From an uncultured archaeon (GTDB lineage: Archaea > Thermoproteota > Bathyarchaeia > Bathyarchaeales > Bathycorpusculaceae): 64,000 bases of DNA. Location: the NCBI GenBank assembly GCA_963782915.1, contig CAWALK010000020.1:352001-416000 (forward strand), in the 5' to 3' direction. This document shows positions 5,068 through 62,796 of the stretch, one piece after another; positions within the stretch are counted from its first letter, which is position 1, and each line of letters starts with the position of its first letter. The notes beneath the pieces were generated by a model. It made no database searches. It saw only the letters and a program-made list of their open reading frames with translations, and was not told where the DNA came from. Made by a program: the position numbers and the translations under genes.

Positions 5068-5165
5068 ACAACCCAAACCAAAAAAGACTCCCTTAACTAC
5101 TGATATCGTTTGGTCCTGTTTTGTTGGTAGTAGTCGTCATAGGGGTGTAGCGCCTACTACTTCTT
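5068..5165 (+). repeat. Divergent copy of the intergenic hairpin repeat (GTA-type arms)
   Basis: CAACCCAAACCAAA upstream; TTGGTAGTAGTCG-TCATAGGGG...-CTACTAC. Confidence 0.5.
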
Positions 5166-5281
5166 AGCGTTCTGCATTACACTGGGTTATTGAGTAGGTT
5201 TAAATTGTAATATTGATTTTCTGTTGTCAGGTAACTGATATGGCTGATTTGAAGGGCTACCTGACTTCCTACTGATCTCAA

Positions 5282-5653
5282 ATGAAAAAGACCCGTTTTC
5301 TGATAGTTGCTGGCATGTTAACAATCGTTGCTTCTTTTGTCGCTTTAGCCATCGGCTTGATCGCTTTTTCCGCTGCCCAAACAAGCTATTACTATAACCA
5401 CGGCTACAACTTCTACTACGCGTACTATCTAGCAACGGGTATCGTGGGTGCTGTTTCGTTTCCTTTGGGGTTGGCCGCTGGCATCCTCATCCTGATGCGT
5501 AGGCGACCGATTTTTTGTCTGTTTGGCTTGGGTTTACTGGTTGCATGCGGTGCCGTAATGACTTTTCCGCTGTGGTTCTTCGGCTTCACCATACTTACGC
5601 TTGCAATTCCGAGTGTAGTCCTTCTTGTCACGTCGAGGTCTGGATTCAATTAA
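5282..5653 (+). CDS. Small multi-pass membrane protein
   Basis: About four hydrophobic segments. Confidence 0.6.
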   Translation: MKKTRFLIVAGMLTIVASFVALAIGLIAFSAAQTSYYYNHGYNFYYAYYLATGIVGAVSFPLGLAAGILILMRRRPIFCLFGLGLLVACGAVMTFPLWFFGFTILTLAIPSVVLLVTSRSGFN

Positions 5654-5844
5654 GGCGTTTTGACAGGTGAATTAATAACCCTAAACTACCAATCAGTATT
5701 CAATTGGTGAAAATGTATGGCTGATTTGAAAGGTTGCCCGTTTGGTCAAGACATAAAAAACGATTGAAAAACATGTGATTATGGTAGCAAGAACCATTTT
5801 GATGCTGCATCGGGGCAATGCGTTAAACGCTAACTGTTAGGCTT

Positions 5845-6045
5845 CTATTCTAATAGTTTCCATGGGTCATCGGGGCCTAAAGCGCAATTATCCTTCGATG
5901 CGTTTGAGCCTTGTTTTTGGGTTTTCTTAGCTGTAATTTCCACAAGCATATCCGCCCCAATCTGCTCAGCCTGCAAAAGCTCCTTTGGCAAAGTTACGAC
6001 GATGCAGTCGCCGACTTTTCTGGTCTTAACAATGTATGTGCGCAA
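5845..6045 (-). CDS. AbrB/MazE-like small DNA-binding protein
   Basis: KTRKVGDCIVVTLPKELL pattern resembles the AbrB/SpoVT fold. Confidence 0.55.
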   Translation of the reverse strand: MRTYIVKTRKVGDCIVVTLPKELLQAEQIGADMLVEITAKKTQKQGSNASKDNCALGPDDPWKLLE

Positions 6046-6109
6046 TCAAATCCGCCTTAGCTCTTTTAGTTACTCGTAGTGTCTGATGCTTTTTACCGTT
6101 TCCCCACAA

Positions 6110-6595
6110 CTACTTGAACAGCGCTTCAAAACCGCTTAAGCTAGCCACGCCAACAGCCGTTAACCCAATACTCCATACCACTATGCCTATGCTCATCCAG
6201 AGCAGCAGCCGCCACCTCTTTGCACCAAGCAAACTGCCCAAAGCTGCCCCAATCAATGCGCCAAAAAGCAGCGGCGACAACAACCCCAACCCTACTACGC
6301 CGTATTTGTTCCAGATGCGGTAGAGGCGGCTTTGATTGAAGTCTTTTTTGTCGCCATATCGCCACTTTACGATTTTGTTTCTTATTTTCTCCCCCGCCAA
6401 AATGATTAACAGGGCACCGACTATGGCTCCCGCCGAAGATGCTATGATAATTGCTATGGGGTTAAGGTTCAATGCCAAGCCTGCGGGGATAGCAGCCCAT
6501 AGCTCAATTATGCTCAACCCGAAGACTGTCAAGGGCTCAATGAAATCCATGTTATCGCTATTTGGTTTGTCTGTTGGGCTTTTAAGAATATCCAT
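6110..6595 (-). CDS. Putative small multidrug export (COG2426-like) membrane protein
   Basis: IELWAAIPAG, KYGVVGLGLLSPLLFG motifs; the ORF extension to 6700 runs into a repeat and is probably spurious. Confidence 0.65.
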   Translation of the reverse strand: MDILKSPTDKPNSDNMDFIEPLTVFGLSIIELWAAIPAGLALNLNPIAIIIASSAGAIVGALLIILAGEKIRNKIVKWRYGDKKDFNQSRLYRIWNKYGVVGLGLLSPLLFGALIGAALGSLLGAKRWRLLLWMSIGIVVWSIGLTAVGVASLSGFEALFK

Positions 6596-6619
6596 AAAAT
6601 CAATACCAAACCCCTCCCG

Positions 6620-6870
6620 ATTGAAAACAACTGCAAACAAGACCGCCACAGAACCTAACAAACCCCTAGCTGCCCAAACAAAAAGAGTGCACACATACAA
6701 TCCCCAAGCGCCCAGCTAGGCACTTGTGGAGCCTATAAATAAGGGAGGGTGTAGGTCGTGAGAGCAAAAGACCTCTCTTTGGTTTGCTCTGAGTTTATTA
6801 CATAACCAAGTCCGTTGGTTGTTGTTGTGTATAGACGGTTTTCGCCAACAACAACTAAACAAAAACAAAA
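6620..6870 (+). repeat. Modular intergenic repeat (C/A-rich module + TATA/G-tract module + hairpin)
   Basis: 6620-6755 aligns with 40815-40950; GTTGTTGTTG 6818-6827 and CAACAACAAC 6846-6855. Confidence 0.85.
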
Positions 6871-6975
6871 AACCTCCCATCAAAATGACGCCAATTAAAA
6901 GCTACTGCACAAAAGCTTTAGAAACCACAAACCCCTTTAACCATTAAACAAACCCTAATATTGGCTGTGTAAAAA

Positions 6976-7290
6976 ATGCAGAAAGTATGGGAAGAACTAA
7001 AAAGTATCGAAGCCCAAGCTGACCAAATCCAAAACGACGCCAAAACCAACGCCAAAAAAATCGTCACCCAAGCCCAAAAAGACGCAGAAAAACTCCTCGC
7101 CAACAGCAAAACCTACGGCGCAGAAGAATCCCAGAAACGCTATGACGCCGCCATCGCTGAAGCTAACAAAAACCGCGACGCACAATTAGCCGAAAACGAC
7201 AAAGCAGCCGCCAAACTCAAGACACAAGCCGAAAAACGCATGGATAAAGCAGTATCAGCCGTCGTTAAAGCGGTGCTTGAGGAAAACTAG
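6976..7290 (+). CDS. atpH: A/V-type ATP synthase subunit H (G-like peripheral stalk)
   Basis: 104-aa charged coiled coil at the head of the ATP synthase cluster. Confidence 0.7.
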   Translation: MQKVWEELKSIEAQADQIQNDAKTNAKKIVTQAQKDAEKLLANSKTYGAEESQKRYDAAIAEANKNRDAQLAENDKAAAKLKTQAEKRMDKAVSAVVKAVLEEN

Positions 7291-7292
7291 TT

Positions 7293-10364: not shown

Positions 10365-10421
10365 TTTTAACAGATATATTGAATTTGCTAACAAGCATTT
10401 AAAGTTGTATTAGGTGAGGGC

Positions 10422-10730: not shown

Positions 10731-10742
10731 AGGTTAAATGAT

Positions 10743-11367: not shown

Positions 11368-13133
11368 CAGCTAAAGGTAGCGTTATCCGAGTTGCAGGTC
11401 CAGTCGTTGAAGCCAAAGGCCTTTCAGATTCAGTTATGCATGAAATGGTCGAAGTCGGCAACGACGGCTTGATCGGCGAAATCATCCGTTTAGAAGGCGA
11501 ATACGCCACAATCCAAGTATACCAGAACACCTCTGGCCTAAAACTCAACGAACCGGTAGTAGGTACTGGCAGCCCCCTCTCAGTAGAATTAGGCCCAGGA
11601 TTGTTAGGCAACACCTTCGACGGTATCCAGCGACCTCTCGAAACCATACGGAAACTAACAGGCGCATTCATCAAGCAAACCCACGGCGTAACAGCGCTCG
11701 ACAGAGAGAAAAAATGGACTTTTACCCCTAAAGCTAAAGTCGGCGCAAAACTCGTAGGCGGCGACATCTTGGGAGTAGTCCAAGAAACCGACTTAGTCGA
11801 GCACCGCGTCATGGTGCCCATCGGCGTTTCAGGCAAACTCACATCAATCGCCGCTAAAGGCGACTACACAATAGTCGAAACAATCGCCACATTAGACACA
11901 GACGGAAAAAAAACCGATGTACAAATGCTCCAAAAGTGGCCAGTCAGAAAACCCAGACCCCACACCAAACGCCTCTTCGCCACCGCCCCCCTAATCACAG
12001 GGCAACGCGTCATCGACACATTCTTCCCCATAGCAAAAGGCGGAAGCGCAGCCATCCCCGGACCTTTCGGCGCAGGTAAAACCGTCACCCAACAGCAACT
12101 CGCCAAATGGTCAGACGCCAACATCGTCATCTACGTTGGCTGCGGAGAACGCGGTAACGAAATGGTCGATGTCCTCGACTCCTTCCCTAAACTGCTTGAC
12201 CCAACCACCGGGCATCCACTCATGGAACGCACAATCCTCGTCGCGAACACGAGCAACATGCCTGTTTCTGCCCGTGAAGCCAGCATCTACACAGGCATCA
12301 CCTTGGCCGAATACTACCGTGACATGGGCTACAACGTGGCGTTGATGGCGGATTCAACCAGCAGATGGGCAGAAGCCCTCCGAGAAGTCTCGGGAAGGCT
12401 CGAAGAAATGCCCGCTGAAGAAGGCTTCCCAAGCTATCTACCATCAAGATTAGCCGAATTCTATGAACGCACAGGAGTCGTCGAAACATTAGGCAGCGAC
12501 GAACGTGTCGGTTCAATCTGCGCCATCGGAGCTGTTTCCCCTCCGGGCGGAGACTTCTCAGAACCAGTCACCCAACACACCAAACGTTTCACCCGAGTCT
12601 TCTGGGCGTTGGATGCTGAACTTGCAGATGCCCGCCACTACCCCAGCATTAACTGGATGGCAAGCTACAGCGGCTACATCGCTGACCTCGCCGGTTGGTG
12701 GCACAAAAACGTGGATGAAAAATGGAATAGCTACCGCGAAGAAGCCATGCGCATACTTCAAGCCGAAGACGAACTCAAAAACATCGTCAAACTCGTCGGC
12801 CCCGAAGCCCTACCCGACAAACAGCGCTTAATCCTTGAAACCGCCCGAATAATCCGCATAGCCTTCTTACAGCAGAACGCACTCGACGCAATCGACACCT
12901 ATTGTAGCCCGCAGAAGCAGTTTAAGATGCTAAAAATCATCGTTGACTTCCACCGCCTCGCAGACAACGTCGTGAGCAAAGGTGCGCCAATCTTTAAAGT
13001 CACCGAGTTACCCGTCACAGAAGACATTATGCGCATGAAAAGCAGCATCCCCAACGACCAGATCGCTCGGTTAGATGATGTGGAAAAGAAGATGTATGAT
13101 AACATTGCAATGTTGGAGGCAACTCTGAGGTAA
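11364..13133 (+). CDS. atpA: A/V-type ATP synthase subunit A (catalytic), no intein
   Basis: GPFGAGKT Walker [33 protein letters not shown]. Confidence 0.97.
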
Positions 13134-13138
13134 TTATT

Positions 13139-14538
13139 ATGGCTGGTATAGGTTTAGAGTATAAAGGTTTAGCTTCAATTTCAGGACCCATCATCGTTGT
13201 CGAAAACGTCAAGAACGTAGGCTACGATGAACTTGTCTCAGTTAAAACCCAGAGTGGCGAAACCCGCCTGGGCAAAGTTATCCAGGTTAGCCAAAAAGCC
13301 GTCATGGTGCAGGTCTTCGAAGGCACCACAGGATTATCTCTATCGCAGACACGCACACGCTTCCTCGGCCACTCCTTGGAAGTGCCGGTTTCAACGGAAA
13401 TGTTGGGGCGAGTCATGAACAGCTTTGGCGAACCCATCGACGGTCACCCAAGGTTCTTCACGGATGAAAAACGCGATGTTAACGGTTTCCCACTTAATCC
13501 CAACGCACGAGAGTACCCAAGAGACTTCATCCAAACAGGCATATCCGCCATCGACGGCTTAACCAGCCTTGTCCGCGGGCAAAAGTTGCCAGTGTTTTCT
13601 GGTCCGGGTTTATCCCATAACGAATTAGCCGCCCAAATCGTGCGTCAAGCGCAGATTCGCAGTGCCAACGAACCCTTCAACATCGTCTTCATCGCCATGG
13701 GCCTCGAACACGACGACGCAGCCTACTTCAAAAAGAGCTTTGAAGAAACAGGCGCAATCAAAAACGTCGCCATGTTCCTCAACCTCGCCGAAGACCCTCC
13801 GGTTGAGCGTATCATTACACCCCGCGCAGGCTTAACCCTCGCAGAATACCTCGCATTCGAAGAAGACTCACATGTACTCGTTATCATGACGGACATGACA
13901 AACTACTGCGAAGCCCTCCGAGAAGTCAGCTCTTCCATGGAGGAAGTGCCAAGCCGCAAAGGCTACCCCGGCTACATGTACAGCGACTTAGCCAGCATCT
14001 ACGAACGCGCAGGCAGAGTCATCGGCAAAAAAGGCAGCATCACCCAGATGCCCATCTTAACCATGCCAAACGACGACATCACCCACCCAATCCCAGACTT
14101 AACCGGTTACATCACCGAAGGACAAATCGTCCTCTCGCCGCAGTCTTGGAAAAACAGGGGATTTATCCGCCAATCTACATCTCAACCAGCCTCTCCCGAT
14201 TAATGAAAGACGGCATCGGCAAAGGCAGCACCCGCGAAGACCACGCAAACGTCTCAAGCCAACTCTACTCAGCTTACGCCCAATATAACTCGGTCAAATC
14301 ACTGGTTACCATCATCGGCGAAGAAGGCTTAGGCACACGCGACAAAGAATACCTCAGATTCGGCGAACGCTTCGAAAAAACCCTGATTAACCAAGGCAAA
14401 AACGAGAACCGCACAATCGAACAAACCCTTGACATCGCCTGGGACGCATTAAGCGACTTGCCCGAAGAAGAATTAACCTCAATCAAACCCGAATACATCC
14501 AAAAGTACCTACCGAAAACCGATACCGAAGTAAAGTAG
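13139..14538 (+). CDS. atpB: A/V-type ATP synthase subunit B (frameshift ~14140)
   Basis: [40 protein letters not shown]; continues as GIYPPI..SLSRLM. Confidence 0.95.
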
Positions 14539-14546
14539 GCACAAAG

Positions 14547-15645: not shown

Positions 15646-15664
15646 ACAATTGGAAGCCACATCC

Positions 15665-18012: not shown

Positions 18013-18291
18013 ATTGTTTCTATATATAAGGGAGGGGGGTAGCTGGCAGAGCAGCAGAAGTTGCCTATTTATTCTTTATATAAGGGAGGGGTAGGTGCTC
18101 TGAGGTAGGTAGGTCCGCTAAGCCTAAATCTGTTCTGTTTAGCGGATTACTCCACAACCAAACTCAACCCGCCATAAACGCAGACCAGCCAAAACACAGC
18201 CGCCAGTCAAGCCCGCTGTAGTTGTTGTTGAAATAAGAGGAGCTCAAAGCAACAATTAACAAAATGAAAACAAACCCCACCAACTTTTAAT
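18013..18291 (+). repeat. Modular intergenic repeat (two TATA/G-tract modules + hairpin module)
   Basis: TATATATAAGGGAGGGGGG at 18021; TATATAAGGGAGGGGTAGGTGCTCTGAGGTAGGTAGGTCC at 18077 nearly identical to 40927-40969; GTTGTTGTTG 18221; CCAACTTTTAAT 18280. Confidence 0.85.
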
Positions 18292-18890: not shown

Positions 18891-18896
18891 CTATGG

Positions 18897-27569: not shown

Positions 27570-27705
27570 CAAACTGCGGTTTGTTGCGCAACCAGTCTGC
27601 AACCTAAACCAAACGCCAAACCCAAAACGCCACGTTCTTCACAAGCCTATTGGTTGTTGTTGTGTATAGTGGTTTTTAGCAACAACAACTATAGAAAAAA
27701 TAGAA
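27570..27705 (+). repeat. Intergenic hairpin repeat copy
   Basis: CAACCAGTCTGCAACCTAAACC; GTTGTTGTTG 27653-27662 / CAACAACAAC 27680-27689. Confidence 0.85.
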
Positions 27706-28443: not shown

Positions 28444-29932
<1,489 letters not shown>

Positions 29933-33109: not shown

Positions 33110-35502
33110 TTGTCAGTTAAGCCTGAAATTAATTCTCAAACCCAACCTACCAGAGACATCCAGCGCTCTGTCCTGCCAATTCCAGATAAACCCTACAAGG
33201 GCTTGATAGTATATGATGCTAAGAGTCCGGATGCCAAGTTTCCGCCGATTCAGCCTATCCGGGCACCCAAAGGGGCGCCAAACATTGTTTTGGTGTTGCT
33301 TGATGATGTCGGTTTTGGTGCTTCTAGCGCTTTTGGAGGTCCAATTAATACTCCTGTTGCGGAAGAACTCGCCACCGATGGGTTGAGGTATACACGGTTT
33401 CATACAACCGCGCTTTGCTCCCCAACCCGTGCTGCACTATTAACCGGACGAAATCACCACACCGTAGGCATGGGCAGCATAACCGAAATCGCCACCTCAG
33501 CCCCCGGCAACAACTCCATAAGACCAAACTACTGCGCACCCCTAGCAAAAACCCTAAAGTACAATGGCTACTCAACCGCCCAATTCGGAAAATGCCACGA
33601 AGTCCCCGTCTGGGAAACAGGCCCCATCGGCCCCTTCGATCACTGGCCAACCTTTTCAGGCTTCGAAAAATTCTACGGCTTCGTCGCCGGAGAAACAAAC
33701 CAATGGTTCCCCGAAGTCTACGACGGACGAGCAAGAGTAAATCTTCCAAACGACCCCAACTACCACTTCCTCACAGACATGACTGACCAAGCAATCAACT
33801 GGATCCGCACCCAAAAAGCGATTGCACCCGAAAAACCATTCTTCGTCTACTTTGCACCCGGAGCCACACATGCCCCCCACCATGTTCCCAAAGAATGGGC
33901 AGACAAATACAAGGGCAAATTCGACGACGGATGGGACAAACTTCGAGAAAGAACTTTTGAGAAACAAAAACAGTTAGGCGTTATCCCGCAAGACGCGAAA
34001 CTTACGGCGCGTCACAAGGAAATTCCTGCGTGGGATGAAATGCCCGAGAAAATTAAGCCAGTGCTAAGGCGCGAGATGGAGGTTTACGCTGGCTTTTTAG
34101 AATTCACAGATCACCACGTTGGCAGATTGCTTGATTCCCTAAAAGAATTGGGCATACTTGATGATACATTGGTTTTCTACATAATAGGCGATAACGGCGC
34201 CTCCGCAGAAGGTACCCTGCAGGGCAGCTTTAATGAGATGACGAACTTTAACAATGCAGCAACCCTAGAAATCGCCGGAATACTTGATTGAGCACTTAGA
34301 CGAATTCGGAGGACCAAAATCCTACAATCACTATGCTGTTGGTTGGGCACATGCAATGTGCTGTCCTTATCAGTGGACTAAACAAGTAGCCTCACATTTC
34401 GGCGGTACAAGAAACGGCTTAATCATCCATTGGCCCAAGGGCATAAAAGCAAAAGGCGAGCTTCGCCACCAATTCCACCATATAACCGATATTGCACCAA
34501 CCATCCTAGAAATCGCCGGCATACCTGAACCAGAATTTGTTGAGGGCGTCGAGCAAAGACCGATGGAAGGCATAAGCATGGCTTATACGATTTTGATGAT
34601 AGCACAGCTCCCTACCGATCATGATGTCCAATATTTCGAGATGTTTGGCAACCGCGGCATATACTACAAAGGCTGGACCGCCGTAACAAAACACCGCACC
34701 CCATGGAAGCTAGGCGCAGCAAAAACAGTCCCCTTCGACGACGACAACTGGGAACTCTACGACACCACAAAAGATTGGACACAAGCCCAGAGACCTCTCC
34801 AAACAAAACCCCGACAAACTCCATGAACTCCAACGGCAATGGCTCATAGAAGCAACCCGCTACAACGTCCTACCCATGGATGACCGCGCAATCGAACGAT
34901 TCTTCGCTGAACTCGTAGGCCGCCCCTTAGCAGTACGAGGCAACACACAATTCATGTACCCGGGAATGATCTTCAACGAGAACGGCGTACTCAATATAAA
35001 AAACAAATCGCATTCCATCACAGCAGAAATCGAAGATTCCTGCCTCAAATGCAAACGGCGTAATTATTGCTCAAGGAGCCAACTTCGGCGGCTGGGCTAT
35101 TTACTTCCATGAGGGACGGCTGAAATATTGTTATAACTTTTTGGGTCTTGCCATCTACAACGTTGAGGCTCCAGATGTTTTGCCGGCGGGGAAACATGAG
35201 GTTCGAATGGATTTCAAGTATGATGGTGGCGGATTGGGAAAGGTGGAGTTGCAATGCTTTTTGTTGATAACGCCAAGGTTGCTGAAGGTAAACTGGAGCA
35301 TACGGTGCCTGTGATTTTTTCGGCGGATTCCACCTGTATGGTCGGTGATAAGATTGGGGCGCCGCTTTCAAGTGACTTCGAAGGACATAGTAACAAGTTT
35401 AATGGTAAGATTAGTTGGGTCCGATTAGAGGCCGGCTTAGAAGAAAGTGAGCGTTTGGTGAATCCGGATGAATGGGTGAGGGTGCATATGTCTATACAGT
35501 GA
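33110..35502 (+). CDS. Arylsulfatase (formylglycine-dependent), several indels
   Basis: PNIVLVLLDDVG, CSPTRAALLTGR, GATHAPHH, GDNGAS, HHITDIAPTIL, WELYD; C-terminal LamG-like domain. Confidence 0.9.
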
Positions 35503-40536: not shown

Positions 40537-40631
40537 ATAGCCAAAATTAATTTCTTTTAATTTTATTAATTTAGCTTTTAAAGCCTAATTTTACTTTTCT
40601 AAGCAGCTATTTTCTTCGCAATAGATAATGC

Positions 40632-40775
40632 TCTGTGCTGTTCTGGCTGCGGTTTATTATACAAGCATATTGTAACCCAAAACAGACGCGGCAACCAAAA
40701 AGCAATAGCACCGCAAAGTCCGCTGGTAGATGATGAGCATAGTGGGTCTAGCCATTATCTACCCCTAGAAAACCA
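40632..40775 (+). repeat. Intergenic hairpin repeat copy with compensated arms
   Basis: Flank matches the reverse complement of 62740-62796; arms GTAGATGATG 40726-40735 / CATTATCTAC 40753-40762. Confidence 0.75.
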
Positions 40776-40814
40776 ACCTCCAACACAGCCTCAAACCAAC
40801 CAAACGATTCCAGT

Positions 40815-41120
40815 CTGAAAACAACTGTAAACAAAACCCCAATAGAACCCAACAAACCCCTAACCACCTAAACAAAAAGATTGCACTCATACAATCCCCA
40901 AGCACCCAGCTAGGCAGTTGTGTGTCTATAAATAAGGGAGGGGGTAGGTGCTCTGAGGTAGGTAGGTCCTGTTAAGTCTAAAACTGAACTGCTTGCGTAA
41001 AACGCTACAACCAACCTGCAACCCAAACCAAACGCACAACACCAAACGCATTGCGCAATAAAGTCCGTTGGTTGTTGTTGTGTATAAGGGTTTTTCGGCA
41101 ACAACAACTATAGAAAAAAC
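40815..41120 (+). repeat. Most complete modular repeat copy (C/A-rich + TATA/G-tract + hairpin)
   Basis: CTATAAATAAGGGAGGGGGTAGG at 40926; GTTGTTGTTG 41071-41080 / CAACAACAAC 41099-41108. Confidence 0.88.
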
Positions 41121-41128
41121 CGACTAGA

Positions 41129-41752
41129 TCACTGTTTAGGATAAGTGGTGCTATTTTTGTGCTGTTTAAACATGTTAACCAAATACACCCACAAAACAAA
41201 CCCAATAGTATTAGCAGCAATCATCGAAAAGTAAATAGTATCAACAATATGCACTGCAGTGCTAAATGGCGAAACAAGCACTAAAATCAAACCCATAGCC
41301 ATAGACTCCAAAACAAACCCCATCGCAGCCGCTTTTAGAAGATACCATTTTCCAGTAATTCTGGAAGCGAGCAAACCCGCGATTAACCCAATCAGAATCG
41401 TTGACACCGCACAGGGAATCGCAGTCAATCCTCCATAGAGATACCGATGGACGCCGCCGATTAATCCTGCCACAACTCCGCCGATGGGTCCAGCGGCTGC
41501 TCCGGCAATCATGGTTGCAAATTCCCGGACGTTAATGACTATGCCGCCTTCTAACTTCATGCCCCAAAGCGTTCCAAAAATCGCCAAGACACCCAACACG
41601 ACACCGAATAAAACCTTGGCTAAGATGCCCTTTTTGGGTCCTTGGAGTTTGTTTAATGTTAAGCCTGAAGCGATGAGTGCTACAACAATCATGGTGCATG
41701 CGGTGCCTAAAAGACCCAGAACGCTTGCCAAATTTTCAGTTAAGGGAACCAT
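41129..41752 (-). CDS. Stand-alone LytS/YhcK-type 5TM receptor domain protein
   Basis: LAIFGT, INVRE..MIAGAAAGP..G..AGLIGGVHRY..GG.TA.PC; no kinase domain. Confidence 0.85.
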   Translation of the reverse strand: MVPLTENLASVLGLLGTACTMIVVALIASGLTLNKLQGPKKGILAKVLFGVVLGVLAIFGTLWGMKLEGGIVINVREFATMIAGAAAGPIGGVVAGLIGGVHRYLYGGLTAIPCAVSTILIGLIAGLLASRITGKWYLLKAAAMGFVLESMAMGLILVLVSPFSTAVHIVDTIYFSMIAANTIGFVLWVYLVNMFKQHKNSTTYPKQ

Positions 41753-46019: not shown

Positions 46020-46342
46020 TTGCCGAGGATTGGTTGAAGAGTTTGCCGCAACCATTGGCGCTAAAAGAAGGGTCTTATGTGATTTTTGCCTATCCCCCCT
46101 CTATTTATAGGCTCAACAAGTGTTGGGTTGGGCGTTTTGGTTGTCTGCATTCATTGGTTTAATGGTTAAGATAAGTTGCGTTTGTTGGAGAATTTGTCGG
46201 GTTTCTATGCGCCTGTTTTTGTACTCTATTGGCTTTGGCTGGTTTGGGGTTTGTTGCTGTGCCAAGACCTCCCTATCCCCTATTAAAAGAAGCCTTTGCT
46301 GCTCTGCCGACCCTCCCCCTCCCTTATATATAGAAACAATAG
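46020..46342 (-). repeat. Modular repeat with two TATA/G-tract modules (reverse orientation)
   Basis: Reverse complement ATTGTTTCTATATATAAGGGAGGGGG..GGCAGAGCAGC matches 18013-18055; CACTTGTTGAGCCTATAAATAG matches 6721-6742. Confidence 0.8.
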
Positions 46343-53365: not shown

Positions 53366-56273
53366 CCGCTACTGTATCCAATCAAACATGTATTTCGAAA
53401 CTGGAAACTATTCGCTGCACTTTTAATAGGAATCGCACTTGCTGCAACCTTTTTCGCCGGCATAGGCGTTAAAGCTAACGTGGCTGCCGAGGATTCTCTG
53501 GATAAACAGATCAGTTCAGTCATGGTTGATATGAGTTCCCGGATTCAACTTAACATGTCAAACCTTGGGCTTGCCTACAAAGACATCACAAATGTCGAGG
53601 GCGTTAAGGACGTTGATTATTTAGCGACTTTTTCTTCGCCAGTTGGGTTACCTGCAAATAATTATTCTGGTATGGGTTATTATTCGCAGATAGTGAGTTT
53701 TCCTAATAATTCAAGAGTTCTCAATGAATGGACAAATAAGCCCTCTGATGGGATACCTACGAACTACACCTATGTGATGGCTGGTAGTAACCTCGCGAAA
53801 AGTGTCAAGGTTGGCGATATCATAACAACAATGCTTACTTTCAATAGCCCCAAATATTACAACCAAACTACCTTTTACCTTAATTTGACAGTAGCCGGTG
53901 AGATTGAATTAACCGATAAAGGCTACTCACTAGTTAGCGGCAACACCTATGCTATAGACTCCCGATCTTCCTTGGGTTCTTACAGAAATGACATTTTGGT
54001 TGTTGACTGGGATAATACTCTACAGCCTCTCTGGAAAAGTGCCCTTGACAGCAGCACCGTTGACCTCCAATTCTACATTGACGTTGACCGAGAAAGCATA
54101 ATTAGCCCCTGGAACGTACAAACATCAGTAACAAAAATAAACCAAATTGCCGATAGAATCCAAAACAAGATTCTGGCAAACTATCTTTCATGGGGCTATG
54201 TAAATAACCAATTGGGTAATGCACTCCAAAATTACCAAAGCAACCTATCTGGTTTCACTATTAGTTTCGCCGTTGTTTCATTCCCCATATTCATCTTGGC
54301 ATGGTATCTCGGCAAAACAGTATCAGACGTATCCTTTAACATCCGTAGACGAGAAATCGGTCTTCTATCCACCAAAGGCTTATCCAGTGGCCAAATCCAG
54401 CGGATGTTCCTCTCCGAAGCCATAATAATAGGTTTAATGGGTGGATTCCTTGGTGTCATCGGGGGTTTACTGCTCAACCAGTACTATTCTGGCTCTGTAA
54501 ACCTTAACAGCCTCTTCACAGGTAAACTGTTTAGCCCCGAGATTGCCCTGTTCACCGTTATCTTCGGTGTAATTTTGGCGCTTATTTCAGTGTTTCTATC
54601 TTCCCGCCGAGCTTCAAGAATACCTGCAGTTGAGGCATTAAGAAATGACATGTCCGCCGGCGATAAGCCAAATCGCAAAATATTCCCGTTGATAGCATTG
54701 ATTCTTGGCACTTACGCTGTCATAATATACCTTTTCGGATTAAACGTCCCCGCAGCTTTCAGCAACTGGTTATACGCTGGAGGAAACATGTACCTCATGG
54801 TATTAACTTTACCAATAAGCTTGATTGACCAATTTTTGAGGTTCTTTGGGCCTTTACTCTTTTTCTGGGGCTTCTGTACCCTAATAATTCGTGACTCTAC
54901 AAAATTCCAAACGGTTGTGTCCAAAATCGCATCTGTCATGGGTGACTTGGGCGCATTAGCAGCTAAGAACGTACGGCGGAACCCTGGTCGCTTGGCAGCC
55001 TTAGCTTTCATAGTTGCTTTAGTCATGGGTCTAGGTGTCCAAGTAACAGGCCAGATAGCCAGCCAAAAAGACTACATAGTCAGGGACTTGCAGGCACAAG
55101 TTGGCGCAGATATAGTCGTTAACTTGGCGAATGCTACAGAAGGTCAAATTGTCCTAAACCACTTGATAGCTAACATTTCCGGCATCCAAAATGCAACGGT
55201 GGAACGTATACTAAACCCAAGAATCGAAGGAGGCGACAACAACTATGGACCCACGATGAAGCTGAAAACTATTGACCCAACCACTTGGGAGCTATCGGCT
55301 CACTATGAAGAAGGCTGGTTCAGCGGTAACAACCTCCAAGACGCCCTGAAAACAATGAAAGCAGACAACAGCACAGTCATCGTTAGCCGTACCTTAGCTA
55401 AACAGTATGATTGGAAACTCTATGACCAAATAGGCGTCAACTTCAATTCAGCCGCACGCAAACTAAAGATTGTCGGGTTCTTTGGACCCGAACCTGCAGA
55501 CAATGCAAATACACCCTACTACCAATCATCACCTGCAATATCCATCGCGGAGGACAGATACACAACAAGCATTCTACCCTCCTACTATCGAAAGCGGGTA
55601 TTATCAACCAACTGACTGCTTCGCCCCAAGAGACCTCTTCAACGTAACAGGTGCAGACAGCGGCATCTACAAACTAGAAAATTTCGAAACTAACATACTA
55701 ATCAAACTACAGCCAGGCGTCAACGGAGCTGCAGTAGCACAACAAATCCGCAACTTAGACCTCAACATAAACACTGTCACCTCATTCGACGAAGAATGGC
55801 AAAGCTCCTCAGAAATGAACAACCTCGCAACATACACCAGCCTACAAACCCTCGACATCCAAAGCTTCGGCCTTATATTCGCCGTAATCTCCGCCTCCGT
55901 GGGAACAGCCCTCATCGCCATCGTCAGCCTAAAGGAACGCAATCGCGAAGCCACACTCATGAGCGTCCGCGGCTTATCCTATCGCCAACTAGTCTGGATG
56001 TTCCTAACAGAGAGCATGGCAATTATCACCTTCGCAGCCATCCTCGGCGTAGTGGTAGGCGTAATAATCGTCTATGGCACAGTAGCAATGGCTAACAACT
56101 CTGCAGGAATATACTCAGTATCTCTGGTCACTCAACGCTTAATCTTCCCCGCTGACGCAGTCGCAACAATCGGCACCTACGCCCTGTTAATCTATGCCTC
56201 CACAATTGGGGCAATCATAGTAATGTCGTATCAATACGTCACAAAACTAGAAAAGATGGTTAGAACAAGATGA
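53366..56273 (+). CDS. ABC transporter permease, FtsX/MacB-like (start uncertain, frameshift ~55590)
   Basis: RRREIGLLSTKG, AAKNVRRN, ERNREATLMSVRG. Confidence 0.85.
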
Positions 56274-57172
56274 GCGCAAACAATAACATAAAAATCCGTG
56301 ATTTAGTCAAAATCCATCATACAGGAAAAATCGAAGTCCAAGCCCTCCGAGGCTTAAACTTGGATATTTCCTCAGGCGAACTTGTCTCCATCATCGGCCC
56401 CTCGGGCAGCGGCAAATCCACGCTACTCAACATCATCGGCGGCTTAGACAAAGCAACAGCAGGCACCGTAACCGTCGGCGAAAAAACCGTAACCAACCTA
56501 TCCGTCCGCCAACTAGTCGATTACAGAAGAAAAATGGTCGGCCACATCTTCCAAAACCTCAACTTAATCCCCACATTGACAGCGCAAGAAAACATCGAAT
56601 TCTCCATGGTAGCTTCAGGCGTCAAACGGGGGAAACGCAAACAACGAGTCGAAGAATTACTAGACACCGTTGGCTTAAAAGACCGCGCCCACCACAAACC
56701 CGAAGAACTCAGCGGCGGAGAACAACAAAGAATCGCCATCGCCAGCGCATTAGCCAACGACGCACCAGTCCTCCTAGCAGATGAACCCACAGGCGAATTA
56801 GACACTGCAAACGCCAAACTCATCGCAGAATACCTTGTTAAAGTGAATCGTGACTTCAAAAAAACCATCGTTATGGTTACCCATGACCCCAGCGTCGCCA
56901 GAGTATCAAGCAGAATACTGCGCATCGAAGACGGCCTAATAAAAACCTCGTTGGCACCTTCCGACGTTATTGTGCAGGAGAAAGCTCATTCCTACGTGGA
57001 CCAAATCAAAGAGCGCATCATGGAAATCAACACTCAACTAACCCAGCTAGACAGCGACTTCCGCGGCGAAAGAATTGAAGGCGACGAATACATGCAGAAA
57101 CGCCAAACCCTCAAACACGTCAGAGACAGCCTCAGAGAAGAATGCTCAAGAATGGGCGTCATCCCACCCTAA
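56270..57172 (+). CDS. ABC transporter ATP-binding protein (LolD/MacB-like) with C-terminal helical extension
   Basis: GPSGSGKST, LSGGEQQR, LLADEPTGELD, VTHD. Confidence 0.93.
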   Translation: MSANNNIKIRDLVKIHHTGKIEVQALRGLNLDISSGELVSIIGPSGSGKSTLLNIIGGLDKATAGTVTVGEKTVTNLSVRQLVDYRRKMVGHIFQNLNLIPTLTAQENIEFSMVASGVKRGKRKQRVEELLDTVGLKDRAHHKPEELSGGEQQRIAIASALANDAPVLLADEPTGELDTANAKLIAEYLVKVNRDFKKTIVMVTHDPSVARVSSRILRIEDGLIKTSLAPSDVIVQEKAHSYVDQIKERIMEINTQLTQLDSDFRGERIEGDEYMQKRQTLKHVRDSLREECSRMGVIPP

Positions 57173-57202
57173 TCCCCTTTTATCAGTTGATCAATAGTTT
57201 AT

Positions 57203-57363
57203 TGGCTTGTTCTGCTTGCAGGTTATTGCACAACCAGTCTTCAACTTGAAGACCGCTTAGAAAACAAAAAGCAACTGTTCCCTTAGTCTGTTGGTTGTTG
57301 TTGTGTATAGGCGGTTTTTGGCAACAACACACTGTAGAAAAACAGATAACCCCCAACTTTAAT
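57203..57363 (+). repeat. Intergenic hairpin repeat copy between convergent genes
   Basis: TTATTGCACAACCAGTCT; GTTGTTGTTG 57294-57303 / CAACAACAC 57322-57330; CCAACTTTAAT. Confidence 0.85.
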
Positions 57364-57372
57364 TTTACCGTT

Positions 57373-59466
57373 TTATCTTTCTATCGAGATTTTGCTAACA
57401 CCCGCTTCCTTATCCAAAATAATCACATGGTCGCCTTTGGCAGCGAAATCTTCACTATGCGTTACCGCAATAATCTGCTCAATAGCCTTGAATCGGCTAA
57501 TTGCCTCAGCCAACCGTTCAATGCTGCCGTCTTCACTGCCCAAATTCTCCGTGGGCTCATCAAGCATAAGCATACTCAAACCGTGGCCAGTGCGGGACTG
57601 CATAATCAACTGCCCCAAACCAAGTCGGTAAGCAAACGCCAACAACGTGCGTTCGCCGCCTGAAAGGTTAGCTACTTCTCGGTCAACTCCTGCCTCGCTT
57701 TTCACGTAGGGCGTGTAGGTTTCGTCGATGACTACGTTTAGCATGGGTGTTTCGCCGCCGACTAAGTTGTCGAGGATTTGCTGTACGAAGTTGCGTAGTA
57801 CTTTGACGAATTCGCTGCGTAGTTTGGGTTGGATGCTGCGGTAGGCGTCGCGGACTGCGCTGAGTAATTCGACGGTTCGGCGGATTTTTTCCATGCGCTC
57901 CAGTTTTTCCTGTGCGAAATTGATGCGGTCTTTGGTGTCGTCTAATCGGCGGGCTAAGTCTTTTTTGCGGTTCTCTTTTGTGCGTAAATCTGATTCTACG
58001 GTGTAGTATTGTTTGAGGGCTTGGTCTTTTTTGTCTTTGGCTGCTTGGAGTTCAGATAAGTCGAATTTGCTGATTTCAAGGACCAAAGCTTCGAGTTCGC
58101 CGTGCTGCTCAACCTCTAGCCGCTGCTGCATCTCAAGCTCGGCGGTTAGGGTTTTGAGGTTAGTTTCTTCCTCAGCAATCCGCGATTTCAGGTCAGCGCC
58201 TCGTGTTAGGCAATTCTGCAGGTTAGTGTAGGCTTCGGAAGCTACAGTTTTGGTTTTTTGTAGGGTAGCAACTTCGAGTCGTAGGTGGTTGATGGTTTTT
58301 TCCCGTTCGCTGTTTTCCTGTTTTATGCTGGACAATAAATCAGTCTTATAGTTGCCCAGTAAGGGTTGGCTGCAAACGGGGCATTTGCCTTCCCCAGTTT
58401 CAACCAATGTAGCGGCTCTTTTCTGGTCCTGCTGAATGCCCCGTGAGGTGGCTTCCTGTTCAGCTCGCATCTGAGAAATCTTATCATCCAAACCCGCTAA
58501 GAATGGTGCTAGCTGCTCAAAGGGCTGATTAGCTGGCAACCCCGCCTGCTCCAGCTTGGCTAGGCACAGCTTCATTTGGCTATCCAAAGAGGTTTGGCGT
58601 TGCTGGAGGTTGTCGATGATGGTTTTTTTGCCCTCAACCCGCTCGGTAAGAGACGCCAAGTTTCGGGTCATGTTGGCGATGTTGGCGTTTACCCTTGCTT
58701 CTTTGCGTTTGAGTTCTTCTATGGCGAGTTTTTTCTCTTCGGAACGTTTCAGCCTCAGGTCAGCTTCTTCCAAAGCCCGTTTAGCGACTTCTAGTCTCTG
58801 CGCTGAATCTTCCAAATCCATCTCTAAAAGCGTGAATTCTTCGCTTGCCCTGTTATACTCGGCGCTAAGCTTCTCCAAACCCACCACATCGGGGTCCTTC
58901 TCATACACCCGTTTCTCAGTTTCGTAGTCGCGTTGGTACTGGGCAATGTTGCTCCAAGCCACCTCATAATCGGATAAGCCAAACAGTTCATCGAGGCGAG
59001 TTTGCCTATCGCGGGGCTTCGCATCCAGCAGTTCCTTAAGGTGTTCTTGGCGGAACCAAACAATCTCGCGGTACAAATCTCGGTCTAAGCCAGTGATGGC
59101 TTTGAGTTGTTCTGCGATGGCGTCAGTTTTCATGCTGGCAAGCAGCTTTTCCTCTTCAAAGAGTTTTAGCTGTTCTATGTCTTGTGTTATGCTTTTGCCC
59201 TTGCGTTTTAAGCCTCGGACCAACTTGTAGGTGTTGCCATTATGGCTAAACTGAACCGTAACTCGGCACCAATCTGCCCCTTCACGCATCAAATAATCAA
59301 AACTACGCCCAACCGCATCCCCGAACAGGGCAAAATCGACTGCGTAGAGGACACTGGATTTGCCGCATCCCACTCCCCCAACAACACAGTTGAAGCCATG
59401 CGTAAAGGGCACTGTGGATTTGGTGTGGCTGCGGATATTTTCCAGCACAACTACGTCGATTTTCAT
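57373..59466 (-). CDS. rad50: DNA double-strand break repair ATPase Rad50
   Basis: LENIRSH, GCGKSS, coiled coil with CPVC zinc hook, LSGGE, MLDEPT, VTH. Confidence 0.92.
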   Translation of the reverse strand: MKIDVVVLENIRSHTKSTVPFTHGFNCVVGGVGCGKSSVLYAVDFALFGDAVGRSFDYLMREGADWCRVTVQFSHNGNTYKLVRGLKRKGKSITQDIEQLKLFEEEKLLASMKTDAIAEQLKAITGLDRDLYREIVWFRQEHLKELLDAKPRDRQTRLDELFGLSDYEVAWSNIAQYQRDYETEKRVYEKDPDVVGLEKLSAEYNRASEEFTLLEMDLEDSAQRLEVAKRALEEADLRLKRSEEKKLAIEELKRKEARVNANIANMTRNLASLTERVEGKKTIIDNLQQRQTSLDSQMKLCLAKLEQAGLPANQPFEQLAPFLAGLDDKISQMRAEQEATSRGIQQDQKRAATLVETGEGKCPVCSQPLLGNYKTDLLSSIKQENSEREKTINHLRLEVATLQKTKTVASEAYTNLQNCLTRGADLKSRIAEEETNLKTLTAELEMQQRLEVEQHGELEALVLEISKFDLSELQAAKDKKDQALKQYYTVESDLRTKENRKKDLARRLDDTKDRINFAQEKLERMEKIRRTVELLSAVRDAYRSIQPKLRSEFVKVLRNFVQQILDNLVGGETPMLNVVIDETYTPYVKSEAGVDREVANLSGGERTLLAFAYRLGLGQLIMQSRTGHGLSMLMLDEPTENLGSEDGSIERLAEAISRFKAIEQIIAVTHSEDFAAKGDHVIILDKEAGVSKISIER

Positions 59467-60678
59467 TTCGATAGCTCCTCGATGGCTTGCTTAACTTTCT
59501 CGTCCTGTTTGCGTGCCAATGGCTCGATTAAGTTGAGGGCTCCATGCGCTATTTTTTGTGCTTCTTCTTTGCCGTAGCGGTCAGCGAAAATCTCCACGAA
59601 GTACTCATACGCTTTAGTTTTTAGATCTTTGAATTCGCCCTCAAAGATGGAGCGGACCACTTCATCGGAAACCGCAGTCTCCTTTAGCTGCACTATCGGG
59701 TGCACAAGTAGCGCTTTTTGGGCGGCAGCACGAATTCTGGGCACATCCACTTCAGTTCTGCTTGCCTCCGCTGGCAGGGTGCCTTTTAAAACTGGGATTA
59801 TGATGGCGTCTGCTTCGTCAGCATCCTTAACCATCTGCACCGCTTGCTCAGTAATCTTCGCCGCAGCCATCCCCGAATAATCAAACTCTACAATAACGAA
59901 TCTACGTGGGGATGTTAACTCGATTAGTTCGGGGTAAACTTGGCCTTTTTCGTCTACTTTGACGTGGTAGAAGCCTTTGGTTATTGTGGCTTCGTCGTAG
60001 CCGACGGTTTCTGTGCAGCCACTATAAACGAGGATGCCGTCTTTGAATTTGCTTTGAATTCGGTCATGGATGTGTCCTGCGGCGTAATAGCAGAATCCAT
60101 CTGGTAATTCGGAGGGTAATATTTCTGCCTCGATATAGGGTGGTTTGACGTCTGGTAAATCGAGGGCGCCATGAAACACAAAAATGTTGGCTACGCCTGC
60201 TTTGGGTGTCGGCGGGTTTTCTTCCATGAATTTCGGGAGGGCTTCTTGGGTTTTGTGGCGGTTGTGGTAGTTTGGGATGCCGTAGACGTAGCAGGAGTCG
60301 GGTTTGCTCCAGCATGCGCCCCGATGTCGTGGGAGGTGAATGATGAGGCCTGCGCTGTCCAATGGATACAGGATGGTGCTTGTTATGGTGTTAGGCGCGG
60401 AGTCATGTGAACCGTCTACAGTTAAGACTGGGATGCCTGCGTCTTTTAGGCGCTTGAAACTCCGAATCGTATTTTCCAGAGTATGATTGGAGGGTCTGGC
60501 TTGATGAAAGAGGTCACCTGCGATAATCATGAAGTCAGGTTTTAAGCTCGATTGTTTTATCCACGAGTTCGCTGAAAGCGTTGTCGAAGTCTTGCCTACG
60601 CACTTCTAAACCGTACTGAGAGTACCCCAAATGCAGGTCAGATGCGTGGACAAAGCTAAACGGCTTCAAAGATTGCAA
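59463..60678 (-). CDS. mre11: DNA repair nuclease Mre11 (homopolymer frameshift ~60540)
   Basis: HASDLHLG (upstream frame), AGDLFH, GSHD, GHIH, YSG. Confidence 0.92.
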
Positions 60679-60768
60679 GACTCCCTTACGTTTCCTTCGA
60701 TGGTTGTTATGGTTTGCTTGTTTTAAAGCGTTTATGCTTCTGCCGTTTCAGCTAGTTAGAGCTTCATG

Positions 60769-61150
60769 CTAGGACATTTGTTCTATTGGAATAGCGACTT
60801 TGCATTTCTTTAGCAAATGAGAATCCACAGTAACGAGCTTCAAGTTTTCTTTCTCTGCTAAATAAGCGTAGGAAGCATCATAGAAAGTAAGGTTCCTCTC
60901 TATAGCAACAGCTAGAACATTAGCCATTGAGTCGAGTTCAAGTTTAGTTAAAGCCTGCATTGCTTTCGAGAAAGTGGTTGCAGCTAATTGCGGGTTCTTC
61001 ATTCTTCCATGCTGGGTTTCTCTCCACAACACATTACCTATTTCATATTCTGTTAGTGCGCTTATTGCGCAATCCTCTGACTTTTAGAGGAATGCCTGAA
61101 AGTAGAATAGGATAGAGTGCGGATGTATCGATCAGGTACTTACATTTCGT
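60769..61150 (-). CDS. vapC: PIN-domain toxin VapC (frameshift ~61075)
   Basis: YLIDTSAL, EIGNVLW, LTFYDASY, LVTVD. Confidence 0.8.
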
Positions 61151-61367
61151 CCCTTGTAGCTCTGACATCTGCTGCCCACTCTTCAGGTGTAACGTTCATG
61201 GCTTCTCTGAGGTCTTTAGCAATTTGTTGTGCTTTTAATTTTTTATTGGCAACTAAATCTTCAAGCGTCGCTTCCACTACTGCCTTTACGTCTATTCCTA
61301 ATTTTTCTGCTTCGTCTTTGAGACCTTTTTTGACTCTAACGGATAATACTTCAGTTGTCATAACCAT
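61140..61367 (-). CDS. Antitoxin (VapB/CcdA-like, RHH)
   Basis: VLSVRVKKGLKDEAEKLGID...VRATRDE; overlaps vapC. Confidence 0.8.
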   Translation of the reverse strand: MVMTTEVLSVRVKKGLKDEAEKLGIDVKAVVEATLEDLVANKKLKAQQIAKDLREAMNVTPEEWAADVRATRDEM

Positions 61368-61531
61368 GCCGCCGTATACAAATGAATAATATTGTATACG
61401 ATCGTTATATAAGATTAACGTTGAACCCCCGAAACGAATTTTTCAAGCAGGTATATGTTCAGTTAGGGTTTGAGTGGCAAGTTTTAAGCCTTTAGCATAC
61501 AAGAGGCTAATGCAACGCATTGGGGGTTCTG

Positions 61532-62320
61532 CTATTTTTTGGTTCCAGCAACCACTATCATGTCTACATGATAGAGAAAAGTTCCCTGCTTTGTCTTTTG
61601 GGTTAATTCGCTGCGCCACTTCGATAGTTCCTCTTCTGATGCGACTTTGCTCTTTGCAGCTTCAGTGCAGAGCCAATCGTCAAAGGGTGTCTCAGAAAAG
61701 TCTCTTAGAACATACGGGTACACCTCAACCACAAGGTCCACATAGCCGTAGTCATGGAAAAGCTGTAGGAGTTCTCTGCCCGCGAACCCGTTGGGCCGCA
61801 TCTGAGTTGCAAAGAAGGACATAAGCCGCCGCTCAAGGGCGATGTCGCTGAAGTTTACGGAGACACTGCCCCAGTCAGTATCAACCACAACCAACCTGCC
61901 CCCAGTTCTCAAAACCCGACTGATTTCGGCTAAAACAGTGGGTGCCTCTGATTTCGGTAACACCTGAAAAAGCCGCTCCGCATGAACCCTATCAAATTCG
62001 CCCTCGCCAAACGGCAACGAAAAAACATCTGCTTGTATGTGCTTCACGTTTTTAGTTACTTTGCTTTCTGCTAATTGGGCGTCTGCTTTTTTGACCATTT
62101 CAGGGTCATTGTCGACGCCTACGATTCTGCCCTCATCGCCGATGTATTCTGAGAGCGCTATTGTATCTATGGCTGGACCGCAGCCTACATCGAGCACCTG
62201 CGAATCCGCTTCAATCTCCATTAGTTGGTGGCTTCTGGTTTTGATTTGCTCTTCATTGTATGCTGTTTTTTTGAGGTATTCGGCGCTGATATAGCGTTTA
62301 TTCTCTTTTGGTTCACTCAC
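61532..62320 (-). CDS. Class I SAM-dependent methyltransferase
   Basis: VLDVGCG, VGVD, LPF..GEFD, RVLRTGG. Confidence 0.9.
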   Translation of the reverse strand: MSEPKENKRYISAEYLKKTAYNEEQIKTRSHQLMEIEADSQVLDVGCGPAIDTIALSEYIGDEGRIVGVDNDPEMVKKADAQLAESKVTKNVKHIQADVFSLPFGEGEFDRVHAERLFQVLPKSEAPTVLAEISRVLRTGGRLVVVDTDWGSVSVNFSDIALERRLMSFFATQMRPNGFAGRELLQLFHDYGYVDLVVEVYPYVLRDFSETPFDDWLCTEAAKSKVASEEELSKWRSELTQKTKQGTFLYHVDMIVVAGTKK

Positions 62321-62397
62321 GATTCATCAGCATCTTCTCAATTAGTAAGAGGTGTAATTAAGTCATGCTTTGCTGATGGTTTAACCGCATCATGCTT

Positions 62398-62625
62398 TGT
62401 TTTTTATAGTTAGTAGAAAATGGCGGAGAGCCTCTATACTCTTCTTCTTCCTGTGGGCTGGCAGGTGGCTGCTTTTTGGTTTCTGCGTTGGTGGTGGTTG
62501 CAGGCGTTTGAAGAGAATTCCGCAAGCAGATACAGTTAGCCAACCAGAAGCATTAACTTGCCTACCTCAGGGACCTCCTTATTGCTAATAGGACCTATGG
62601 TACTCTGCCACTGATCCCCTATAGT
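62398..62625 (-). repeat. Divergent full repeat copy with GAA-type hairpin arms
   Basis: Reverse complement TGGCAGAG..AATAAGGAGGTCCCTGAGGTAGG..GCCTGCAACC..GAAGAAGAAG-AGTATAG..CATTTTCTAC. Confidence 0.7.
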
Positions 62626-62630
62626 AGTAG

Positions 62631-62796
62631 ATTAAAAGTTGGTTGGTGTTCTTGTTTTTCTTTATTGTGTTGTTGGTAGAAAGCCCCTATATACAACAAC
62701 AACCAGCGGCGTTTGCGGGCGATTGTGTTTTAGCTTTAGCGTCCAGAGTTAGGTTGCAGGCGGGTTGTGCAATAAACCGCAACCAGAACAACACAG
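62631..62796 (-). repeat. Intergenic hairpin repeat copy (reverse orientation)
   Basis: Reverse complement TTATTGCACAACCCGCCTGCAACC..GGTTGTTGTTGTATATAG..CAACAACAC..CCAACTTTTAAT. Confidence 0.85.

Follow-up and report, generated by a model that had tools for sequence, protein, structure and literature searches.

A dispersed hairpin between genes and the unit to which it belongs

What is a hairpin that recurs in the spacers of an archaeal genome, with arms that vary from copy to copy and yet still pair? The question arises from a stretch of 64,000 nt (hereafter the window; positions 352,001 to 416,000 of contig CAWALK010000020.1, assembly GCA_963782915.1) from an uncultured archaeon of the Bathycorpusculaceae (Bathyarchaeia), in which an earlier note made from the sequence alone had reported nine such hairpins. 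We found that the hairpin makes up the 3′ portion of a longer, sharp-ended non-coding unit of ∼150 nt, here named E, and that E is a lineage-restricted, non-autonomous, insertion-polymorphic element whose stem is maintained by compensatory changes. The source genome is a 3.28-Mb assembly (G000) in 25 contigs that is 93.5 % complete, and the window is archaeal.

All nine hairpins were present where they had been reported. A count of the arm sequence GTTGTTGTTG over both window strands gave nine, where 0.38 would be expected, and none of 100 shuffles reached that number. An nhmmer profile derived from the copies matched eight of the nine and nothing else in the window, and the same eight were returned by a covariance model of the hairpin (R1; E-value ≤ 1.6e-8). 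The proposal that all nine form one family thus stands for eight; the hairpin at 5127 was matched neither by nhmmer at an E-value ≤ 1e-3 nor by R1 at an E-value ≤ 1, and its membership is therefore unproven. The arm classes described earlier were found again, with six copies combining GTTGTTGTTG with a CAACAA.. right arm, one copy (40726) carrying a single G-T pair and another (62450) an imperfect stem. The hairpins had also been described as intergenic, and none of the window copies overlaps a called gene by >30 nt; this and all other context figures rest on crude gene calls (3,310 genes, 74 % coding). The features are as follows, P and M being neighbouring repeat modules that are described below.

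5127..5166, +: reported hairpin, a degenerate relative at most; 7-bp GTAGTAG/CTACTAC stem with a CA-rich left flank; missed by nhmmer and R1.
6804..6879, +: short form of E (3′ part and hairpin), stem GTTGTTGTTG/CAACAACAAC; nhmmer profile positions 90–165, E-value 1e-16; R1 6810–6871, 78.8 bits; preceded by a P-core (6739–6756) and an M module (∼6622–6728).
18123..18277, +: E copy with loop type B (AAATAAGAGG..); nhmmer E-value 1.2e-21; R1 18211–18276, 37.8 bits; promoter-like P module upstream, its P1 form starting at 18098 (370098 on contig C20).
27575..27710, +: E copy; nhmmer E-value 1.2e-31; R1 27645–27705, 76.9 bits; ∼730 nt upstream of the 16S rRNA gene.
40627..40783, +: E copy, stem GTAGATGATG/CATTATCTAC with one G-T pair; nhmmer E-value 2e-23; R1 40718–40778, 53.3 bits.
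40800..40949, +: M module (∼40800–40925) followed by a P-core (40932–40949, exact match), directed into the next E copy.
40975..41125, +: E copy with a P module upstream; nhmmer E-value 5.7e-38; R1 41063–41124, 78.4 bits; 3′ end 4 nt short of where the convergent gene 41129–41752 ends.
57198..57356, +: E copy; nhmmer E-value 1.8e-32; R1 57286–57348; between convergent ABC-ATPase (56270–57172) and SMC/Rad50-like (57373–59466) genes.
62396..62544, −: E copy with an imperfect stem, GAAGAAGAAG/CATTTTCTAC; nhmmer E-value 2.5e-24; R1 62393–62458, 50.4 bits; in tandem with the copy at 62640..62801.
62640..62801, −: E copy; nhmmer E-value 1.8e-37; R1 62649–62711, 70.2 bits; upstream of and divergent from a zf-AN1/M50 gene (62916–63752).

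Across the genome, E gave 176 nhmmer matches with the seed profile and 191 with a profile built from 124 full copies, the latter being divided between the strands as 97 (+) and 94 (−). Near-full-length copies number 131, four of which overlap a called gene by >30 nt, whilst 19 truncated matches hold only the 5′ part and 30 only the 3′ part. The unit runs from a 5′ block beginning CTGCTTGCG, through a CA-rich body of fixed length, to the hairpin and then TATAGAAAAA. The hairpin itself has a 10-bp stem with G at each third base and a loop of 17–19 nt that begins with a TATAG-like motif. At the 5′ edge conservation rises from ≤ 0.4 bits to 1.0–1.8 bits at CTGCTTGC, and it drops again after the A-run at the 3′ end. 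Flanks on both sides had previously been counted as shared by the family; the left flank of ∼100 nt is indeed a real part of the unit, whereas the downstream CCAACTTTTAAT lies outside it, in a distinct motif found next to no more than a minority of copies (in this genome, 16 of 125).

Conservation of the unit

Copies of E are old, with a median pairwise identity of 62 % and a nearest-neighbour identity of 78 %. The body is a mix of conserved and free positions, such that columns at 1.8–1.9 bits adjoin columns at 0.1–0.3 bits, and of the 82 copies compared from other genomes, which represent several species, 74 have exactly 81 nt separating the 5′ block and the stem. Because conservation is so uneven despite the low identity, and because the 81-nt spacing is fixed, most copies appear, as far as sequence comparison can tell, to be under purifying selection rather than in decay.

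The alternative that E is a decaying, functionless relic of a mobile element that spread in a burst long ago, in which the hairpin and blocks merely reflect what the source copies once needed in order to move, draws on the same low identity, as well as on the many truncated copies, the lack of any partner gene found and the enrichment of E between convergent genes (both below), where insertions are least harmful. It does not sit well with columns that remain at 1.8–1.9 bits beside saturated ones when even nearest neighbours differ by ∼22 %, with a body length held across several species, or with the double changes that preserve stem pairing, and we consider it distinctly unlikely. A protein-coding E, which was suggested by the periodicity of G and by open frames on both strands, was ruled out by its indels and frames: indels in the body are mostly of 1 nt (51 deletions and 26 insertions), multiples of three are not favoured, and any given frame is open in 51 of 121 copies at most.

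Compensatory changes in the stem

In order to count base pairs, 51 hairpins (eight from the window and 43 from 40 loci) were aligned to R1, and the ten stem pairs scored were those named from the seed alignment. Standard pairing was found in 84.4 % of stem cells, compared with 67.6 % in shuffles, and cells in which both sides had changed numbered 76, compared with 36.1; neither value was reached in 500 shuffles. The covariation score was 0.373, against 0.154 in shuffles and 0.065–0.199 in controls with slid partners. Compensatory switches between T:A and A:T were seen at six of the ten pairs, these being all six of the W:W pairs, and were well balanced at columns 18–58, where 25 sequences have UA and 24 have AU. 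The four G:C pairs are never reversed, with G always on the 5′ arm, and one of the four is GC in 33 hairpins, GU in 16 and unpaired in none. The earlier suggestion that pairing is under selection is therefore borne out by compensatory changes at six of ten pairs, at a level well above that of the shuffled and slid controls, and G at every third position, likewise pointed out before, proved nearly invariant across copies. Furthermore, opposed bases across 156 copies comprise 166 G:T and 48 A:C, which, together with the GC/GU pair, is consistent with folding of the top strand. A rearranged fold, with a block of the body paired to the 5′ arm, was also considered and set aside, as no covariation was visible by eye in copies of the GAAGAAG type.

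An inverted repeat of this kind might instead be bound as double-stranded DNA by a dimeric protein, such as one used in chromosome organization, and the dyad symmetry at fixed spacing, the high copy number, the intergenic placement and the fixed length of the unit would all suit such a role. A protein that reads the invariant G/C positions has, however, no need for matched T:A to A:T changes on both arms, and the excess of G:T is strand-specific. Nor does E show a replichore-like pattern of orientation: both strands are equally used, and the copies form 92 runs where 105 would be expected, so that orientation is clustered no more than mildly and locally; we hold a dimer site to be very improbable.

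Insertion at orthologous sites and distribution

The comparison of orthologous loci that the earlier note had proposed revealed empty sites in relatives at two loci, and from these it follows that E inserts. At the junction between the convergent ABC-ATPase and SMC/Rad50-like genes (57172/57373), three related genomes (G005, G014 and G074) have 7–16 nt between the stop codons and no E, even though G005 holds many copies elsewhere, and only one of 70 metagenome loci with this gene carries E there. The spacer upstream of gene 62916 is ∼130 nt long without E in G065 and ∼630 nt long with E in G050, whilst G000 has two copies. The first of these junctions is also part of a segmental duplication, in which window positions 56300–58300 and positions 12160–14288 of contig C14 in the same genome are 85–87 % identical and include the ends of the ABC-ATPase and SMC-like genes. 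The C14 region has the same E as the window plus a second one, whose left edge lies at the CTGCTTGC block and beside which no flank repeat is visible.

Matches to E were found by BLAST in eight of 24 other genomes of the genus and in none of 16 genomes that represent 15 further genera of the order. With R1, seven of 151 genomes of the order gave a match, counting G000, and four of 12 did so within the genus; single weak matches occurred in two genomes of a sister genus, and none in 115 genomes from 11 other families of the order. An exact 19-mer of the hairpin was present in at least 97 stretches of other species' genomes, those listed being Candidatus Bathyarchaeia/Bathyarchaeota metagenome-assembled genomes (MAGs) and one ‘uncultured archaeon’, and in none of the viral contigs searched. 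E is thus genus-restricted, and patchy within the genus. Genomes rich in E are G000, G005, G007, G008, G140 and G148, and among those free of it are G003, G013, G017 and G174.

Bathyarchaeia are abundant and almost uncultured, and in certain species of the genus E takes up an appreciable fraction of the spacers whilst being missing from others. It can serve as a marker for the history of strains and species, it may supply promoters, RNA ends and sites of recombination, and it offers a case in which to study the persistence of non-autonomous elements that have no recognizable transposase.

Search for element ends and a mobilizing enzyme

No target duplication was detected at the core ends of E, where the longest word shared between flanks averaged 5.03 nt compared with 4.92–5.29 nt for shuffled pairs, and nothing was found at alternative ends, for which only four copies could be tested. 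At one locus E is bracketed by an inverted flank motif, as would be expected of a MITE, or miniature inverted-repeat transposable element, with terminal inverted repeats. This candidate was rejected, the motif being a separate neighbouring module that is rarely on both sides: in G000 (125 copies) it lies on the 5′ side of 19, the 3′ side of 16 and both sides of four, and in other genomes (97 copies) on the 5′ side of four, the 3′ side of 20 and both sides of none. A conserved hairpin was seen at the 3′ end of E only; no conserved 5′ stem appeared in the folds, which included no dedicated test for one.

The absence of a transposase had been noted for the window, and this holds for the 40 window open reading frames (ORFs) scanned. 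Genome-wide, the Y1 transposase/RAYT family (PF01797) had no match in the 93.5 % complete assembly, the control being positive in six of 14 genomes, and reverse transcriptase (PF00078) had no match either, with a positive control in three of 14. For the Y2 family (PF04986) the lack of a match carries no information, its control being positive in none of 14 genomes, and the only match to PF07282, taken as a sign of TnpB, was an SPFH/zinc-ribbon protein. Seven protein families have three or more close copies; the six that were scanned (MCP, CheW, TFB, thermosome and two that matched nothing in Pfam) include no transposase, and the seventh is a NosD-like gene. As assembly of a MAG can lose insertion sequence (IS) elements, the absence of the enzyme is not proven by these searches.

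Two further candidates for a mobile partner were examined and rejected. Pairs of split E matches, taken as the ends of an autonomous element, enclose either gaps of 194–200 nt, which consist of M and P modules, or gaps of 924–1017 nt, which hold ordinary ORFs. A 3.2-kb repeat found at three contig ends with ∼97 % identity (G000 C19:179250–182459, C3:1–3206 and C9:18618–21468) contains NosD-like, PHP and TGT genes and no transposase; a P1 module lies between its genes.

These results bear most directly on the view that E is the non-autonomous partner of an HUH single-stranded DNA transposase (of REP/RAYT, IS200/IS605-type PATE or IS91/rolling-circle type), in which the hairpin would be read as folded single-stranded DNA during replication and the 5′ block would be the other cleavage site. 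Sharp ends without terminal inverted repeats or target duplication, a motif resembling such repeats in only a minority of copies, a single subterminal 3′ hairpin with strand-specific G:T pairs, and insertion polymorphism with copy numbers that differ widely between species of one genus are all as such a view predicts. Against this, the REP-like candidate raised in the earlier note falls short of its enzyme, as no Y1/RAYT gene was found, the TnpB-like match is an SPFH/zinc-ribbon protein and the six scanned families hold no transposase; moreover, no second hairpin was seen at the 5′ end, and recognition of the ends would not require so many strongly conserved positions in the body. An HUH partnership is, in our assessment, unlikely.

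Modules P and M upstream of E

The P-core is a TATA-like box followed by a G-rich core, and occurs in the window at 40932–40949 (+), 6739–6756 (+) and 46310–46327 (−); a longer form, P1, has an additional G/T-rich stretch with a sharp end and gave 50 matches in the genome. In 43 of the 131 E copies a P-core lies upstream on the same strand, mostly at 54–59 nt (∼57 nt), compared with five in reverse orientation upstream, one forward downstream and two reverse downstream. We infer that P may be a promoter, because by its sequence it resembles the TATA region before tRNA and 16S genes and has, by eye, a conserved GAG ∼30 nt downstream. P modules also form P2-P1-P2 tandems or stand singly upstream of ordinary genes, and P may be a reused promoter. 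At locus L115 of another species (G058:C51, between 46149 and 46268) a P-like module occupies the junction at which G000 has an E, so that modules of the P type also come and go at orthologous sites. Several copies in other genomes carry what by eye are diverged forms of P.

The third repeat module, M, is ∼120 nt long, has ∼15 copies in the genome by BLAST (∼40800–40925 and 6622–6728 in the window) and in every case immediately precedes P and E in the same orientation. Read on the bottom strand, it shows a conserved ATG and a hydrophobic ORF of short length that by eye is truncated by a stop in at least one copy. The genome also encodes four TFB (TFIIB) paralogues of ≥ 60 % identity (G000 C11:28926–29870, C18:238901–239872, C20:138573–139595 and C20:143506–144474), one of them scanned against Pfam, which could be relevant to promoter-like modules as unusual as these.

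Gene context and orientation

Convergent genes flank 41 of the 131 near-full-length copies (31 %), compared with 18 % of all spacers over 150 nt. A further 29 copies lie between divergent genes (background 25 %) and 61 between co-directional genes (38 sense and 23 antisense; background 57 %). On the hairpin side the next gene is convergent in 64 of the 131 copies, at a median distance of 86–92 nt and often at only 4–30 nt.

This arrangement raises the idea that E is a transcription end signal or insulator, such that the run of 5–7 T with which its bottom strand begins, beside the hairpin, would stop the transcripts of a gene that enter the 3′ end of E. The corresponding A-run is among the best-conserved parts of the unit (1.6–1.8 bits), and both the convergent gene on the hairpin side in 64 copies and the enrichment of convergent spacers would follow. 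Yet on that side the other 67 of the 131 copies meet no convergent gene, a T-run requires neither a conserved body of 100 nt nor a covarying stem downstream of it, and relatives with empty sites do without E. As such, a role as end signal or insulator seems quite improbable.

The favoured interpretation

Our preferred interpretation, held tentatively and with slightly less than an even chance of being right, is that E is a dispersed repeat of the REP/BIME/ERIC kind that has been kept by selection and whose top-strand hairpin acts in a transcript. The top strand would be transcribed, in this genome often from the TATA-like module ∼57 nt upstream, and the stem-loop would act in the RNA as a 3′-proximal hairpin that defines or protects the RNA end or else binds a protein. 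Compensatory pairing, fixed spacing, the G:T excess and the placement of P are the observations from which this picture is drawn.

Several observations weigh against it. The uneven conservation could come from evolving master copies instead of from selection on each copy. The 40 loci added for the pair counts were chosen for unusual stems and the alignment used (A3) was fitted to the model, five stem pairs are each unpaired in 11–18 of 51 cells, and the commonest variant, GAAGAAGATG/CATTATCTAC, retains two A:A mismatches. The excess of G:T is partly owed to composition and to the register, the 5′ arm being rich in G/T and the register freely chosen. RNAalifold returned no consensus pairs for 111 full units or for 51 hairpins. 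One copy was folded as a whole unit and did no better than its shuffles on either strand (top, z = 0.21; bottom, z = −0.96), and its top-strand fold of minimum energy lacks the hairpin; with such scores and no RNAalifold pairs, the folding models do not support a highly structured RNA. An ordinary archaeal terminator is absent from the top strand, as no T-run follows the hairpin. Transcription and the choice of strand are read from two lines of evidence, the P module and the G:U counts; in other genomes, searched with the same pattern, P is upstream in only four of 82 copies and downstream in four, and in G000 19 of the 43 P–E units are directed at the 3′ end of a convergent gene and not at a gene start.

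A bolder version, which we think distinctly unlikely, is that E and P together make up a self-contained small transcription unit present in ∼190 copies, and thereby a new class of archaeal RNA. It would have a fixed scaffold (the 5′ block, the 81-nt spacing and the G-periodic stem) and free segments that may give each copy its own specificity, and its RNA or DNA would be copied by an enzyme outside the known HUH, DDE and reverse transcriptase families. If the RNA interpretation were true, E would be among the largest families of non-coding RNA genes in an archaeal genome.

Other observations in the window

The 16S rRNA gene of the window (28444–29932) has no adjoining 23S gene, the latter being on another contig (G000 C12:367007–370037). 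A sulfatase is seemingly split into overlapping ORFs (33110–34291 and 34284–34826), and the ORF for the B subunit of an A-type ATPase is short (13139–14203) and followed by an overlapping ORF (14146–14538); both may represent frameshifts or assembly errors.

Comparison with known repeat families

The earlier note knew of no described archaeal element with this consensus, and our searches of Rfam and of the literature agree. At Rfam gathering scores the whole window matched only the 16S rRNA and one tRNA, with nothing at E, and positions 40550–41180 searched at an E-value ≤ 1 gave no match, including to C/D and H/ACA small RNAs; in the literature searched, no repeat or small-RNA family was found described for Bathyarchaeia. 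Within Bathyarchaeia, E is a new non-coding repeat that is dispersed and restricted to one genus.

REP sequences are G+C-rich palindromes of 20–40 nt that are tied to a RAYT (Y1) gene. E resembles the REP/BIME elements of enterobacteria in that both are high-copy, lineage-restricted intergenic hairpin repeats that form mosaics with other repeated modules, have been maintained over long times, and have neither terminal inverted repeats nor target duplications. It differs in that its 38-nt hairpin is the tail of a 150-nt unit, in its A/T-rich stem with G at every third base, and in that no Y1 gene was found. REP/BIME elements, with REPINs, are covered in PMC2817692.

Bacterial units of the ERIC, BOX, RUP and Correia types are often transcribed; some, the Correia elements, carry promoters, SPRITE elements have terminator-like hairpins and BOX elements are modular. 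E is similar to the ERIC, BOX, RUP and Correia types as a dispersed non-coding unit of 100–200 nt. Classical MITEs have terminal inverted repeats and target duplications, and E has neither. These repeats, along with MITEs, are the subject of a review (PMC10969869).

Amongst archaeal elements, the SM elements of Sulfolobus and PATE have the same ends as known IS elements in their host genome, whereas no IS partner of E was found in its genome. PATEs are without terminal inverted repeats, terminate in a palindrome and, as MITEs derived from IS200/IS605, have subterminal hairpins at both ends. In having neither terminal inverted repeats nor target duplication E agrees with PATE, and like both SM and PATE it is a non-autonomous element dispersed through archaeal spacers. 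The archaeal MITEs named in the accessible part of PMC10969869, which include the Sulfolobus SM elements and PATE of Haloquadratum, come from other lineages only, Bathyarchaeia not being among the hosts given there.

The P module, for its part, is comparable to the reused or mobile prokaryotic promoters found upstream of genes (PMC3575422), as it too is a repeated TATA-like unit upstream of unrelated sequences. It differs from them in keeping a fixed distance from a non-coding repeat instead of a gene, and its promoter activity is putative. By the traits that mark the REP/RAYT, IS200/IS605-derived and classical MITE families, E does not qualify as a member of any of these; by analogy, it can be regarded as being of the same general kind as the REP/BIME, ERIC and BOX intergenic repeats of bacteria.

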